Origin: a virus
Taxonomy: Duplodnaviria; Heunggongvirae; Uroviricota; Caudoviricetes
DNA length: 30,649 nucleotides
Virus record (IMG/VR): IMGVR_UViG_2802429244_000003
Reading direction: 5' to 3' (one strand)
In this document: positions 22,056 through 28,789 of the stretch, in pieces
How positions within the stretch are numbered: the first letter of the stretch is position 1
Layout: each line of letters opens with the position of its first letter
The notes under the pieces: model-generated
What the model was told of the DNA's origin: nothing
Seen by the model: only the letters and a program-made list of their open reading frames with translations
Databases searched by the model: none
Translations under genes and position numbers: made by a program

Positions 22056-22271
22056 TTACTCTCCTCTCGCAGCCTTACGCCTGTCTTCTTTAATCTTGAA
22101 ATAAAGATTTGTCAGATACGTCAGCAGGCCAAAAACCAGGCTACCCAGCACACCGATTGCAGCCCACTGTGACGGAGTTACTTTATCGAGTAACTGCAAT
22201 GCCCAGAAACCAGCATTACCCGCCGATGTGCCATAGGCAACACCTGTTGTTAACTTATCCATTGATTTCAT
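22056..22271 (-). CDS. S: Holin, phage-21 S-type pinholin with dual-start motif
   Basis: [71 protein letters not shown] matches phage 21 S pinholin as recalled; Met1 and Met4 give the antiholin/holin dual start. Confidence 0.85.
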
Positions 22272-22490: not shown

Positions 22491-22661
22491 ATGTCAGAAC
22501 GTAAAGACTCAAAATCACGCCGTAATTATCTCGTTAAATGTTCCTGCCCAAACTGCACCCAAGAGTCAGAACACAGTTTTTCAAGAGTACAAAAAGGTGC
22601 CCTTTTGATCTGCCCTCATTGCAACAAAGTATTCCAGACAAATCTTAAAGCTGTAGCCTGA
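22491..22661 (+). CDS. Candidate small zinc-ribbon protein (56 aa; CxxC, 17 residues, CxxC)
   Basis: MSERKDSKSRRNYLVKCSCPNCTQESEHSFSRVQKGALLICPHCNKVFQTNLKAVA; AGGA 7 nt upstream; hairpin terminator about 60 nt downstream; possible TTGAAA / TAATAA promoter elements upstream. Confidence 0.4.
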   Translation: MSERKDSKSRRNYLVKCSCPNCTQESEHSFSRVQKGALLICPHCNKVFQTNLKAVA

Positions 22662-22745: not shown

Positions 22746-23024
22746 TATTGTGGTGCTTTTTGTGAGAGTCATCCACTTACGCACTTTGTTTTGCTATGCC
22801 AGCAGTTAGCTTCTGCTGTAAAACTATTCATGCAGCAAACCTGCACTTCACCACAATGGTTAGCATACTTTTCCTGATTAAGTTATTACCAAATATGCTG
22901 GCCATTGTTTCATGTATTGGACCGCCTTACTCTTTATTAAAGAGATCCAATATTCACCACTCTGTCTGTATCTCCACTCAGGCATCAGCCTTCTTCGTTA
23001 TCGTATACAGACAAACTATGAATT

Positions 23025-23240
23025 TTAATCATTAATGATGACATTTGCTGCTGCAGGACCTTTAGCACCACTCTCTACAGAGAAGGTAACCTTTTGACCT
23101 TCAAATAAGGTTCGATAATTATCATTCTGAATCGCAGAAAAATGCACAAACACATCTTTACTACCATCAACAGGAGAAATAAAGCCAAAACCTTTATCAG
23201 CGTTAAACCATTTTACTAAACCAGTCATTTTATTTGACAT
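23025..23240 (-). CDS. cspB: Cold shock protein, CspA family (CspB-like)
   Basis: [67 protein letters not shown]: cold-shock domain with the RNP1 motif KGFGFI; long 5' UTR region upstream. Confidence 0.9.
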
Positions 23241-23539
23241 TCTACATTCCTTAACTTGAGCCTTTCGGCATAAATGGTTTGTATAACAGAAACGACTTCG
23301 TACTTAATTGGAGAGACTCAAAGAAGGAATAAGTGAATAACACCTGAAATGAGAACTGCTTTAGTAAACTACTTCGTATATCGTCTGTTCTTCAAACCGA
23401 CGCAATCATTAACGCATAGTTGAACATATGAAGCAATGTTTATTTTAGACATCCAGCCATCTTCAACCCCATCAAAAAACTATAGCTTTCTTCAGGAACG
23501 TGTGTATAGTGCGCCAAGTTATCAGTATTAAGGAATTTT

Positions 23540-23752
23540 TTGTCCCGTAAAATGACAGGAATTGTCAAAACCTTTGACTACAAAAGCGGCAAAGGTCTTA
23601 TCATACCATCCGATGGCCGTATCGATGTCCAGCTGCACGTTTCTGCTCTCAATCTCCGCGATGCAGAAGAAATTACCACAGGATTACGCGTGGAATTTTG
23701 CCGAATCAATGGTCTACGTGGACCTTCAGCTGCCAATGTTTATCTTTCATGA
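23540..23752 (+). CDS. cspF: Divergent cold-shock-domain protein (CspF/CspH-like, lacking the canonical RNP motifs)
   Basis: (M)[69 protein letters not shown]; the track start is a TTG with AGGA 5 nt upstream; an in-frame ATG lies 12 nt downstream. Confidence 0.85.
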
Positions 23753-23806
23753 GCTATATTAAAGCTTTTACTTTAAGCCCCATCGGATCACACATGGAGA
23801 GTTTTT

Positions 23807-23896
23807 ATGAATAACCCCGTCTGCCTTGATGACTGGTTGATTGGCTTTAAAAGCTTATGCTGTACTTTGGCCGTAATAGCTCTGCTAATAATATAA
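23807..23896 (+). CDS. Candidate 29-aa hydrophobic peptide (type-I-toxin-like small membrane protein)
   Basis: [29 protein letters not shown]; GGAGAG Shine-Dalgarno 5 nt upstream of the ATG; below the ORF-track size cutoff; found by manual reading. Confidence 0.3.
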
Positions 23897-24044
23897 TAAG
23901 CAGACTCATTGTGTTTAGGGACATTGTACTGGAAGAAAACATTTTAAACATCAGGCAAATAACTAAGTCACCAGCTAAATAATAAGTTAACAGACATGGG
24001 TCCCGGGATGAGGTTCAACATCACCATTGCCCCATTTAAAGCAC

Positions 24045-24080
24045 AAAACCCGCTCATCAGCGGGTTTTCTAATTTCTTTC
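24045..24080 (+). terminator. Hairpin terminator downstream of cspF and the small peptide ORF
   Basis: AACCCGC, TCATCA loop, GCGGGTT, then TTCTAATTTCTTT. Confidence 0.5.
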
Positions 24081-24358
24081 TAAACATCAGATATACAAAG
24101 CCCATCATTGAGGGAATCTTATCCATATTTTTTGAAAAATGCAAGCATCACGTTGCCATCTTCATTGAAAAACCTTTATCGTGTTACTTTTATCAATTGC
24201 ACTTCAGCATAGAGTTATCCCAGGCAGCACTTTAAAGACTTCTACATTACACACACCTTGTCTCCCCTTCTCGTCATATCTGCAAGACCGATATGCATGA
24301 CGCAGTACATACGCTGAACTGCTTTATCCATCAGCATATTCTAGTGCTAAAGCGACTT

Positions 24359-24386
24359 CAGTAGCAGAAGCAAAATTCTGCTACTG
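24359..24386. repeat. Perfect 11-bp inverted repeat, CAGTAGCAGAA and TTCTGCTACTG separated by a 6-nt spacer
   Basis: Read directly from the sequence; about 140 bp upstream of the DUF883-like gene; no T-tract on either side, so it is unlikely to be an intrinsic terminator. Confidence 0.5.
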
Positions 24387-24523
24387 TGCCAAACAGGAGT
24401 AAACGTCATTTTATGTAATGTTGATTGAGTGGTCATAGTATCACCTCAATAACAGCTCTTCGCCCTATCATTGAAAGCATATCTGCTATAATTAAAAAGC
24501 CACTTAACATCAGGACTTCAAAC

Positions 24524-24709
24524 ATGACTTCAAATCAATCTGAAAACGAAATAGTTAATACTGTCAAAAAATATGCATCATGTGCTGACGATGCTTTGCA
24601 GGCAGGCAAAGAAAACGTTAAAGATAAATTTAGAAATTATCCACTGACTAGCGTGGTGGTCGCTCTAAGCATAGGGTTAACGCTTGGTTTTATTATTGGC
24701 AGAAAATAA
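24524..24709 (+). CDS. Small C-terminally membrane-anchored protein, DUF883-like (ElaB/YqjD/YgaM family)
   Basis: MTSNQSENEIVNTVKKYASCADDALQAGKENVKDKFRNYPLTSVVVALSIGLTLGFIIGRK; the C-terminal single transmembrane segment ending in basic residues is typical of the family; AGGA upstream. The track ORF would extend to a TTG at 24425. Confidence 0.55.
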   Translation: MTSNQSENEIVNTVKKYASCADDALQAGKENVKDKFRNYPLTSVVVALSIGLTLGFIIGRK

Positions 24710-25837: not shown

Positions 25838-26590
25838 TTATCTTGTCACTTTTCTCAGTTGTGCTTCTGCATACGCTTCTTCCTGCCAGCACTTTGTTAC
25901 CAGTTTATCAATGACGTCCGCATACCCCTTGTACCACTGATAATCTGTCAGGTCCGGTACCAACTTCTGGACATGACGTCGTGCCAGTGTGGTCGGTAAA
26001 CGACTAAACCTGTTTCCATTACAACGCCCACAAATCTTATAAACCGGTACGCCATGAAGCCGGGTTCTTTTTTCATCCAGGACAATACCTTTACCCTTAC
26101 ACCCTCTGCACGCTGTGCTGACTTCGCCCTTACCATGGCAATGCTGACATAGTTCCTTCCCCCATTCTTCCTTGATAACAGATTCCCCACTTCTGTAGTG
26201 TTTCACCACTTCGCGCAATACATTATGAAATCCCGTACCTGCACAATGTTCACAGCGAGCCTTACTTGCCGCAGACCTGGAATAATCAGCAAAGGCAAAA
26301 TTCACAAGGTAAGGGATGATCTGTAACCGGGTTTCTTCACTCAATTTGTTCAATATCGGGTTATCCAGTGCCATCGCGTAATTGAGCAGACCTTCAATCG
26401 CAAACTGAGGGTCCTGAACACCAACTTTTGCCAGGAATAAGGCAAACCCAAGCGGTGCTTTCGACTGCACCATCCCCTGCGCAGCCATCACATCCGTAAT
26501 TGCTAAACCACCTGAGTCTGTCGCCGGTGCGTCATCGCTCAATTTTGGAGGTTTTGGGGAGTAATATTTTGGTAAGGCTTCAAGGTTCAT
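25838..26590 (-). CDS. Q: Late gene antiterminator Q (zinc-binding)
   Basis: 250 aa from MNLEALPKYY...; contains CEHCAGTG...CQHCHGKG...CRGCKGKG...CGRCNG Cys motifs; GGAGA Shine-Dalgarno; located upstream of the lysis cassette as quuQ is in the Qin prophage. Confidence 0.8.
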   Translation of the reverse strand: MNLEALPKYYSPKPPKLSDDAPATDSGGLAITDVMAAQGMVQSKAPLGFALFLAKVGVQDPQFAIEGLLNYAMALDNPILNKLSEETRLQIIPYLVNFAFADYSRSAASKARCEHCAGTGFHNVLREVVKHYRSGESVIKEEWGKELCQHCHGKGEVSTACRGCKGKGIVLDEKRTRLHGVPVYKICGRCNGNRFSRLPTTLARRHVQKLVPDLTDYQWYKGYADVIDKLVTKCWQEEAYAEAQLRKVTR

Positions 26591-26603
26591 GCTCGTTCTC
26601 CAC

Positions 26604-27653
26604 TTACGCCAATACGCCAATTGCCAGCGCACGATCGATAAAACGAAATATCAGCTCCAGCTGGGAGCCATACTTCTTTTCAAATGCCACGGTATCCGCA
26701 TGCAGCTCGTCGTGATGCTTTCTGCACAAAGGCAACACAAAGAGGTCATGCGCTTTTGTACCCATTCCGCCCTGACCATGACCAATCAGGTGATGGGGAT
26801 CGTCAGCTGGCTTACCACAACACGCACACGGCTGTGTCTTCACCCAGCGCGTGTATTTCTCATTTACCCAGCGGCGACGTTTAGGTCGCTTCATGAAAGA
26901 TTCCGGAGACTCCGGATCAACGGCAATGCTGACCTCCGTCTTTTCCTGTGGTGGGTTCTGTTGCTGGTGGGCGTGAGGCGGTAGCACAATATTTTTTGTG
27001 CGCTGCTTCAGTATACTGGTGGCTGTCTGCTCTCCCGGTATGATGTCACTCTCGCGGTAAAGCGAGCGGATTTTTTCAGCACGTAACCCCAGAGAACGAC
27101 GTAATACTGCCTCCGGTAGCGCGTCCGCTACCTGATTGCAGACCGCCCACCAGGATAATTCAGCCAGCGATAATTCCCGCTCCTGCGTGCCATTCATTGC
27201 ATGGCGTATGACGTCAATCATCCATGCTGACAGGTTTTGATGAGCAAGTTGCCCGAGTGATTCGGATGTCTGGTCACGCAGCTGGTTGTCGCAGTGCCAG
27301 CACAACACCATCGCGCCGGTACCGTAACGATGTATGACGATTTCACTGTGATGATAGTCACCATGAGGCCACTGGCAGGATTTGACATGACGCAACAGCC
27401 AGTCAGACAGTGCACCAGCGCCGCCAGCAGCACGAATCACCCGCTCATCGCTGAAAAATGGCAGTAATGATTTATCCTCCGCCAGCGGCTGGCGAACTGC
27501 AGGGACGACTCCGGATGGCAGGCCGCACATGCTTTTTGGTTCCGGCTCCACCAGCACGCGAGGATTATGAAATACCCGCATGGATTCACGGCCCGGTTTT
27601 AGCACCACCAGCCCAAGTTCCGGTACCGGAACAGGTCGAAGTAATACCCGCAC
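26604..27653 (-). CDS. DUF968-domain protein (ydfU-like; Cys/His-rich C-terminus)
   Basis: 349 aa; C-terminal CACCGKPADDPHHLIGHGQGGMGTKAHDLFVLPLCRKHHDELH; immediately upstream of Q, as ydfU is in Qin. Family assignment is from memory. Confidence 0.7.
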   Translation of the reverse strand: MRVLLRPVPVPELGLVVLKPGRESMRVFHNPRVLVEPEPKSMCGLPSGVVPAVRQPLAEDKSLLPFFSDERVIRAAGGAGALSDWLLRHVKSCQWPHGDYHHSEIVIHRYGTGAMVLCWHCDNQLRDQTSESLGQLAHQNLSAWMIDVIRHAMNGTQERELSLAELSWWAVCNQVADALPEAVLRRSLGLRAEKIRSLYRESDIIPGEQTATSILKQRTKNIVLPPHAHQQQNPPQEKTEVSIAVDPESPESFMKRPKRRRWVNEKYTRWVKTQPCACCGKPADDPHHLIGHGQGGMGTKAHDLFVLPLCRKHHDELHADTVAFEKKYGSQLELIFRFIDRALAIGVLA

Positions 27654-28480: not shown

Positions 28481-28636
28481 TTACTCCTCAGGTTCGTAAG
28501 CTGTGAAGACAGCGACCTCCGTCTGGCCGGTTCGGATTCGTACCTCGCAGAGGTCTTTCCTCGTTACCAGTGCCGTCACTATGACGGTTAAACAGATGAC
28601 GATCAGGGCGATTAACATCGCCTTTTGCTGCTTCAT
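28481..28636 (-). CDS. hok: Hok-family type I toxin (small membrane-depolarising peptide)
   Basis: MKQQKAMLIALIVICLTVIVTALVTRKDLCEVRIRTGQTEVAVFTAYEPEE, matching the Hok/Gef family (HokD-like) as recalled. Confidence 0.9.
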   Translation of the reverse strand: MKQQKAMLIALIVICLTVIVTALVTRKDLCEVRIRTGQTEVAVFTAYEPEE

Positions 28637-28693
28637 AGCCTGCTTCTCCTTGACCTTTCGGTCCGTAAGAGGCAATCTATATGTGACGAGCAT
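28481..28693 (-). CDS. mok: mok, the in-frame upstream reading frame whose translation is coupled to hok
   Basis: 70-codon ORF sharing the hok stop, with a 19-codon N-terminal extension (MLVTYRLPLTDRKVKEKQA) and GAGG upstream; the leader resembles the plasmid R1 hok leader (...CCUCUUAC...CAAGGAGAAG...AUGAA) as recalled. Confidence 0.6.
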   Translation of the reverse strand: MLVTYRLPLTDRKVKEKQAMKQQKAMLIALIVICLTVIVTALVTRKDLCEVRIRTGQTEVAVFTAYEPEE

Positions 28694-28760
28694 ATAGGGG
28701 CCTCACTTCGATTTATAGTCGGGTGGGGCTTTTATCTATCTGCCGTTGGTGTTCATGCCC
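28650..28760 (+). ncRNA. sok: Predicted location of a Sok-like antisense RNA; exact ends not determined
   Basis: Inference from hok/sok architecture: the antisense RNA should be transcribed opposite the mok translation-initiation region. A TTGACC -35-like hexamer sits at 28650..28655, but no convincing -10 element or terminator was found. Confidence 0.25.
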
Positions 28761-28789
28761 GAGGCAGATAGCCTCAAGCACCCGCAGCA

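Follow-up and report, generated by a model that had tools for sequence, protein, structure and literature searches.

Does the 29-codon reading frame lying directly downstream of cspF at 23807-23896 (plus strand) encode a real protein, and if so, what kind of protein is it? The frame is found in IMG/VR virus record IMGVR_UViG_2802429244_000003, analyzed here as a single stretch of 30,649 nucleotides (the window), which is a lambdoid prophage with tail and head genes in its first 20 kb. The original prediction, made from the nucleotide sequence, described an unannotated hydrophobic peptide with a strong Shine-Dalgarno sequence and offered three readings of it, as a small toxin, as a peptide regulating a membrane protein, or as a frame open by chance. 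We find that the frame belongs to a genuine, translated and already known gene, ynfS, which has been named since 2018, carries reference annotation, and has a Pfam family of its own. Our overall reading, to which we assign a probability of about 85%, is that this known small-protein gene of Qin-type lambdoid E. coli prophages encodes a young accessory membrane peptide, expressed from the cspF transcript, and not a classical type I toxin.

Inspection of the frame and its signals bears out the coordinates and the layout originally described. The ATG occupies 23807-23809, and 29 codons on the plus strand lead to a TAA at 23894-23896. Upstream, the Shine-Dalgarno sequence GGAGAG occupies 23796-23801, and TTTTT fills the interval up to the ATG, giving the 5-nt gap that had been claimed. 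It lies within the 54-nt spacer (23753..23806, plus strand) that separates ynfS from cspF; the cspF stop codon is at 23750-23752, so that the ynfS ATG is indeed found 3' of cspF, 54 nt beyond. The gene cspF itself (23540..23752, plus strand) encodes a cold-shock-domain protein (Pfam CSD, E=2e-21), and E. coli genomes carry the annotation cspF at the corresponding position. Downstream of ynfS, a 3' untranslated stretch (23897..24044, plus strand) leads to an intrinsic-terminator-like hairpin with a T-rich tail (24045..24078, plus strand; stem AAAACCCGC-TCAT-CAGCGGGTTTT), which starts 149 nt past the ynfS stop, in agreement with the terminator expected about 150 nt downstream. The hairpin proper (24045-24068) contains 10 pairs, 5 of them G-C, with a T run after it, and its stem is conserved in all haplotypes; we presume that it forms the 3' end of the cspF-ynfS transcript. 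Since it is flanked by an A-run on its 5' side as well as by the T-run on its 3' side, it may work on the opposite strand too.

The same signals are maintained across natural variants of the region. GGAGAG is invariant in all compared haplotypes, the variable sites of the spacer being confined to 23753-23791 and 23806. Variable columns make up 11% of the ynfS frame in the haplotype alignments versus 22-24% of the 3' untranslated stretch, which also contains a 7-nt indel among haplotypes. We note that a short frame with such a signal is unremarkable by itself: in the window, ATG frames of 20-50 amino acids preceded by a Shine-Dalgarno-like 4-mer number 11, compared with 22 +/- 5 in shuffled sequence. 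However, ynfS is the sole one among them to contain a 14-residue segment whose Kyte-Doolittle hydropathy is >= 2.5, a combination that shuffles produce 0.03 times per window.

Comparison with E. coli K-12 identifies the gene. The window peptide is identical in 29/29 residues to K-12 YnfS (b4750), encoded in the Qin cryptic prophage of MG1655, where the gene is annotated as ‘protein YnfS’ between cspF and ydfT/quuQ. At the DNA level, the window and K-12 ynfS are separated by a single silent difference in codon 6 (TGC vs TGT). The peptide matches Pfam family PF23697 ‘YnfS’ over its full length (80.9 bits, with the family cut-off at 27; E=4.7e-23; residues 1-29 aligned to all 29 profile positions), the 90%-identity sequence cluster that contains the exact peptide is named ‘Protein YnfS’, and UniProt holds it as YNFS_ECOLI. 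RefSeq likewise places a CDS (WP_120795389.1, ‘hypothetical protein’) at exactly the matching position after cspF in complete E. coli genomes. The description of the peptide as unannotated was therefore right for the list of open reading frames on which it was based, but not for MG1655 or RefSeq E. coli, which both carry the gene.

Published work on K-12 establishes that ynfS is translated. In the study by VanOrsdel 2018 (PMC6001520), ynfS (cspF/ydfT, 1642122-1642211, 29 aa, identical sequence) is among 36 short ORFs for which an SPA-tagged chromosomal product was detected, and it was already positive in tetracycline-arrested ribosome profiling. Weaver 2019 (bioRxiv 10.1101/511675) describes ‘strong start peaks’ at ynfS under retapamulin as well as under Onc112, together with a detectable tagged protein. 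Tagged YnfS accumulates in LB in both exponential and stationary phase (PMC6001520; bioRxiv 10.1101/511675), as detected through a C-terminal SPA tag that is larger than the peptide itself. This evidence belongs to the published K-12 gene, to which the window is identical in Shine-Dalgarno sequence, Shine-Dalgarno-to-ATG spacing and start codon. Taken together, the identical K-12 protein, its detected tagged product and the strong ribosome peaks at its start codon exclude chance as an explanation of the frame. As for what the protein does, the literature naming ynfS reports no function; the gene was listed in 2024 among uncharacterized Qin-region genes, and a NaF transcriptome paper includes it among the down-regulated genes.

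What kind of protein, then, is YnfS? Its GRAVY is 1.47, and the original description of a short polar head followed by a hydrophobic helix is correct, the helix corresponding to C-terminal residues 10-29 with a mean hydropathy of 2.2-2.5. Mean Kyte-Doolittle hydropathy is 2.18 for residues 10-29, 2.46 for residues 11-29 and 2.86 for residues 16-29, and the 19-residue windows starting at residues 10-11 score 2.2-2.5. YnfS thus has one segment long enough to span a bilayer and is predicted, from hydropathy, to be a single-pass membrane protein. The hydrophobic stretch includes K15 and has no flanking positive charges, leaving the topology uncertain. We also considered whether YnfS could be a lipoprotein and rejected this: the sequence before C18 and C19 is K-S-L and does not conform to the lipobox L-[AS]-[GA]-C, and there is no upstream n-region/h-region.

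In its genetic neighborhood, which is that of a Qin-type lambdoid prophage, ynfS follows cspF directly, within the interval that separates the lysis cassette from the Q gene. On one side are a holin gene of the P21 holin S family (22056-22271, minus strand) and cspB (23025-23240, minus strand), the latter with a full-length cspA-type thermoregulator leader (22960-23401, minus strand; Rfam RF01766, 156 bits). Between these two lies ynfU (22491-22661, plus strand; Pfam PF23499, E=2.5e-31), a recently named small gene for a 56-aa zinc-ribbon protein, which, like ynfS, points against the late operon. On the other side is the Q antiterminator gene (25838-26632, minus strand). The cspF leader scores 12.6 bits against the cspA-type thermoregulator model, which is below threshold, and cspF and ynfS are therefore probably without that form of cold-shock control. 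The roughly 1.5 kb between the ynfS terminator and Q, DNA that is absent from K-12 Qin, contains a second small gene on the ynfS strand: a 62-aa ORF (24521-24709, plus strand; phrog_11629, E=6e-46; weak DUF883_C match) that is membrane-anchored by prediction through a hydrophobic, glycine-zipper-like C-terminal tail. The insert with this ORF is found in some E. coli strains, e.g., FHI_NMBU_03 (WP_000203370.1).

How the gene is likely to be transcribed follows from this arrangement. A search for promoter-like sites gave none in the interval from cspF to ynfS, and the simplest model would consequently be a bicistronic transcript ending at the hairpin. In K-12, genomic SELEX shows binding of RNA polymerase holoenzyme to the divergent cspB/cspF spacer, which is consistent with a cspF promoter at that position; the accessible papers contain no report of co-transcription of ynfS with cspF. 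In lambdoid phages, late transcription proceeds from Q across the lysis genes. The cspF-ynfS pair on the plus strand is opposed to this late operon (Q, cspB and holin, all on the minus strand), and from gene order it looks like an independently expressed accessory unit, a lysogen ‘moron’.

The original prediction drew attention to the architecture of type I toxins, and the size of YnfS and its hydrophobic C-terminal helix do fit such a toxin. In this scenario, a membrane-damaging YnfS would be held in check by antisense RNA, either a dedicated one starting just past the stop codon or the convergent late transcript. Prophages of this type carry type I loci, and the window itself has a hokD/sok-type locus (28481-28693 and 28634-28783, minus strand), which served as a positive control for our searches (Pfam HOK_GEF, E=2.9e-23; Rfam sok, 104 bits). 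In contrast to these clear hits from the same libraries, YnfS has no match among the toxin models of Pfam, NCBIfam or PADLOC at E<=10 (in Pfam, the YnfS family alone is matched), and a search of Rfam on both strands across 23250-24450, even at E<=10, yields no RNA overlapping ynfS. A candidate start for an antisense RNA can be pointed out, a minus-strand promoter-like site at 23917-23888 (TAAACA-16/18-TATATT/TATTAT, 9/12 match). However, promoter-like sites in the region occur at chance level (7 vs 5.5 +/- 1.9 in shuffles), both the -35 and the -10 of this site vary between haplotypes, and the fold of the antisense strand is unremarkable (z=-0.75). As for the convergent late transcript, gene order implies that transcription from Q to the holin must cross ynfS in antisense.

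The mode of expression also speaks against a toxin. The translation of known type I toxins is normally repressed, whereas K-12 YnfS is strongly translated and builds up in cells growing under ordinary conditions. Hok/Gef, Ldr, Ibs, TisB, ShoB, ZorO and DinQ resemble YnfS in being very small with a single hydrophobic helix, but they are encoded at stand-alone loci with a structured leader; ynfS would instead be the second cistron after a protein gene, sharing its transcript layout with cspF and being without a long structured leader of its own. Two qualifications apply to this comparison: toxicity could be masked by the C-terminal tag on YnfS, and a search based on Rfam covers described RNA families, so that an antisense RNA of a new kind may exist. 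The literature naming ynfS reports neither toxicity nor an over-expression phenotype, and the supplements of Adams 2021, consulted for an antisense RNA, mention neither ynfS nor cspF. We therefore find no support for the toxin proposal, given the missing toxin-family and Rfam matches, the chance-level antisense promoter and the translation in normal growth, and consider a classical type I toxin to be scarcely probable at all.

One annotated feature antisense to ynfS deserves comment here. The genome record of phage HannyBb (PP925841.1) includes a minus-strand ORF at 23847-23951, which we rejected as a candidate since it belongs to an over-called annotation. In that record, about 20 tiny minus-strand ‘hypothetical proteins’ extend across the cspB-cspF-Q region, one of them antisense to ynfS, while cspB, cspF and ynfS are all omitted. 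We regard this annotation as an artifact that provides no evidence for antisense genes.

The distribution of ynfS is narrow. The region that extends from the cspF end through the terminator is present in full in 1406/5426 complete E. coli genomes (~26%), with 89-97% identity to the window, and ynfS always follows cspF in the genomes that carry it; every locus with sufficient flanking sequence (122/122) aligns through cspF. Five phage records with the region represent four Escherichia phages. We scanned one genome per species from 185,579 bacterial and archaeal species with a degenerate back-translation of DDWLIGFK and recovered 3 true matches, two in the E. coli group and one in Shigella flexneri, while the other ten matches fall inside unrelated larger frames. 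Sequence clusters added a few Salmonella contigs. A scan of metagenomes with the looser pattern DDWLIGF returned no YnfS-like frame among at least 120 matched loci, which are apparently chance matches and carry no information on distribution. By the genome and cluster searches, the YnfS family is essentially restricted to Escherichia/Shigella prophages.

Within this range, the window itself is somewhat apart. Its identity to prophages of complete E. coli genomes is ~93% over 11.6 kb, and the best values among the 5426 genomes are 97% over 323 nt (the end of cspF to the terminator) and 95.7% over 901 nt. Identities above 99% around ynfS are found only with IMGVR_UViG_2802429248_000011 and IMGVR_UViG_2802429247_000004 (99.2-99.4% over ~5 kb). 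On these figures, the host of the window may be an unusual Escherichia lineage.

Conservation of the frame in close homologs, on which the original prediction had made its case depend, is high but not complete. Among 135 loci with the frame, representing 10 nucleotide alleles, the 29 codons are intact in 132 (~98%). Disrupted versions include (I) a nonsense allele, K15* (AAA to TAA), in O145:H28 strain RM12761, flagged ‘internal stop’ in RefSeq, (II) a start-loss allele (ATG to ATA) in one IMG/VR contig, and (III) an IS1 element inserted after codon 26 (strain TKEC21-59). An allele-specific 31-mer search matched 2 genomes for the nonsense allele, against 1338 for the intact one. Stops and disruptions of the frame are therefore rare, with the nonsense allele in 2 of ~1400 carriers and a single case each of start loss and IS1 insertion. 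Against this stands a ~258-bp deletion allele (e.g., NZ_CP082327.1; window ~23747-24004) in roughly 225 complete E. coli genomes. In these, cspF has lost its last codons and is frameshifted, and its end is fused to the sequence immediately ahead of the terminator, so that ynfS is missing altogether along with most of the 3' stretch.

The variation within intact copies is more informative about selection on the peptide. The variable sites of ynfS comprise 1 synonymous and 9 non-synonymous sites, with a pN/pS of 2.46, whereas those of cspF in the same haplotypes comprise 19 synonymous and 11 non-synonymous sites, with a pN/pS of 0.19 (Fisher p=0.008). The search pattern is blind to protein changes in codons 8-15 of ynfS, and the non-synonymous excess holds despite that; in fact, protein clusters reveal additional missense alleles in precisely these codons, with I12T on 661 contigs, L11M on 559 and D9N on 180. 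The counts are small (10 variable sites), and comparison from region to region is confounded by the mosaic structure that recombination has given the locus. Under neutrality, the probability of observing at most one synonymous change among 10 sites is 0.33, and the data are therefore compatible with neutral evolution. We also asked whether a hidden overlapping gene could explain the pattern and rejected it: none of the other five frames renders the variants mostly silent, the best accounting for 4/10. We conclude that purifying selection on the YnfS sequence is weak or undetectable, which is not proof that it has no function.

These data raise the possibility that ynfS is a proto-gene, in which a strong Shine-Dalgarno sequence and an ATG arose by chance in the cspF 3' region and the product is translated without a selected function, being tolerated since it is small and either rapidly turned over or placed in the membrane without harm. 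The excess of protein-changing sites over that in cspF agrees with this, as do the many missense alleles at appreciable frequency and the persistence of nonsense, start-loss, IS1 and deletion alleles in natural strains; the restriction of the family to Escherichia/Shigella and a few Salmonella contigs, and the fact that no function had been reported as of 2024, point the same way. However, frame, length and Shine-Dalgarno sequence are intact in ~98% of the examined loci, and the co-occurrence of a hydrophobic helix with a strong Shine-Dalgarno sequence is rare by chance. Moreover, the common replacements (A22T, V23L, I29M, N3K and N2D) are conservative, and with the high proportion of intact loci there may be some constraint on hydrophobicity and on the 29-codon length. 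With ten variable sites, the P value of 0.33 leaves neutrality indistinguishable from weak selection. On balance, we see a proto-gene as possible but doubtful. YnfS may have a selected membrane-modulating role or no function, and the population data lean toward weak or no constraint.

A different possibility is that the selected feature is not the peptide at all, but the RNA or the act of translation, for instance through control of cspF mRNA stability or termination, or through interference with the convergent late transcript. Synonymous variation is indeed low in ynfS (1/~19 sites vs 19/~50 in cspF, p=0.007), although the deficit is not significant when the comparison is made with flanking non-coding DNA. 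Similarly, the window and K-12 differ at 2 positions in the 175 nt of 23790-23964, compared with 20 in the 250 nt before 23790. Yet this low-divergence block runs past the ORF, and its edges vary with the pair of haplotypes compared, as expected from recombination mosaicism. Finally, a long hairpin that encloses the Shine-Dalgarno sequence and ATG can form in most haplotypes by pairing of AAAGCTTT(T) in the spacer with (A)AAAGCTT of codons 14-17. The sense-strand folding energy around ynfS is not significant, though (z=-1.28), and the hairpin is missing from the minimum-energy fold of the K-12 haplotype and has no compensatory changes. With z=-1.28, no covariation and no counterpart in the K-12 fold, we discarded the hairpin as evidence, and consider selection on RNA or translation very improbable.

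The mosaic character of the region is apparent in several haplotypes. Over 23540-24080, divergence between the window and K-12 is 8% in cspF and the early spacer, ~1% at 23790-23964, and then higher. Phage 2H10 has a cspF identical to that of K-12 and a strongly diverged 3' region; in 2H10 and strain M-17, an identical or near-identical cspF is joined to a diverged 3' region with the 7-nt indel. The two palindromic AAAGCTT(T) copies lie within 23762-23856 (plus strand), one in the spacer and the other in ynfS codons 14-17. Phage-type recombination mosaicism adequately explains the low-divergence blocks that shift between haplotype pairs.

Comparison with known systems helps to delimit what YnfS may be. 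The nearest is the Qin prophage of K-12, in which the identical 29-aa peptide lies 54 nt after cspF with the same Shine-Dalgarno sequence and terminator, and in which the module ynfU, cspB, cspF, ynfS and then Q/ydfT is shared with the window; the two differ in that the window has ~1.5 kb extra between terminator and Q. A second point of reference is provided by the small inner-membrane regulators of E. coli, such as AcrZ, MgtS, MgrB, CydX and KdpF, which form a functional class and not a homologous family. Like YnfS, these are shorter than 50 aa, have one predicted transmembrane helix and are encoded beside, or in an operon with, a larger gene, and they were found by the same tagging and ribosome-profiling approaches. 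Unlike the AcrZ-type regulators, YnfS has as its neighbor CspF, a cytoplasmic nucleic-acid-binding protein and not a membrane complex, is limited to one prophage lineage, and is under no detectable purifying selection. YnfS may regulate a membrane protein, which was the second of the readings first offered.

A third comparison is with DicB, a small Qin prophage protein reported to target inner-membrane proteins of the host and to confer protection from phage (PMC6832061). DicB and YnfS have no sequence relationship, and DicB differs in being cytoplasmic and encoded in another operon; a DicB-like role for YnfS would be speculation by analogy. In a broader form, YnfS might be a membrane effector expressed in the lysogen, acting in superinfection exclusion or in modulation of a membrane protein, or else a weak toxin silenced in cis by antisense Q-antiterminated late transcription, and we judge this improbable. 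If it were true, silencing of a weak toxin by late transcription would tie ynfS expression to the lysogenic or lytic state, and the fast amino-acid turnover of an effector or weak toxin would mean an arms race and not neutrality.

We thus return to YnfS as an accessory membrane peptide and propose the following sequence of events. Transcription of a cspF-ynfS mRNA would begin within the divergent spacer between cspB and cspF and stop at the hairpin (24045-24068). In the lysogen, ynfS would be the second cistron of this mRNA, and ribosomes would initiate on it independently at its own GGAG, which precedes the ATG by 7 nt. Residues ~10-29 of the product would form a single helix spanning or anchoring in the inner membrane, preceded by a 9-residue acidic head and with K15 positioned near the interface. 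The product would be a recently evolved small accessory peptide in the membrane that may modulate a membrane protein.

In sum, ynfS matters little as a discovery, being a gene that was already known. Its recovery indicates that the cue of a strong Shine-Dalgarno sequence combined with a hydrophobic tail works, since reading of the raw sequence picked out an experimentally validated small gene. The weak constraint seen in the population data points to a small membrane peptide that is young, narrow in distribution and probably dispensable. Robust translation and a narrow range, combined with protein-changing variants that outnumber silent ones 9 to 1 next to a constrained cspF, suggest that YnfS may be young or dispensable, and its case bears on how many of the small proteins validated by ribosome profiling truly function.
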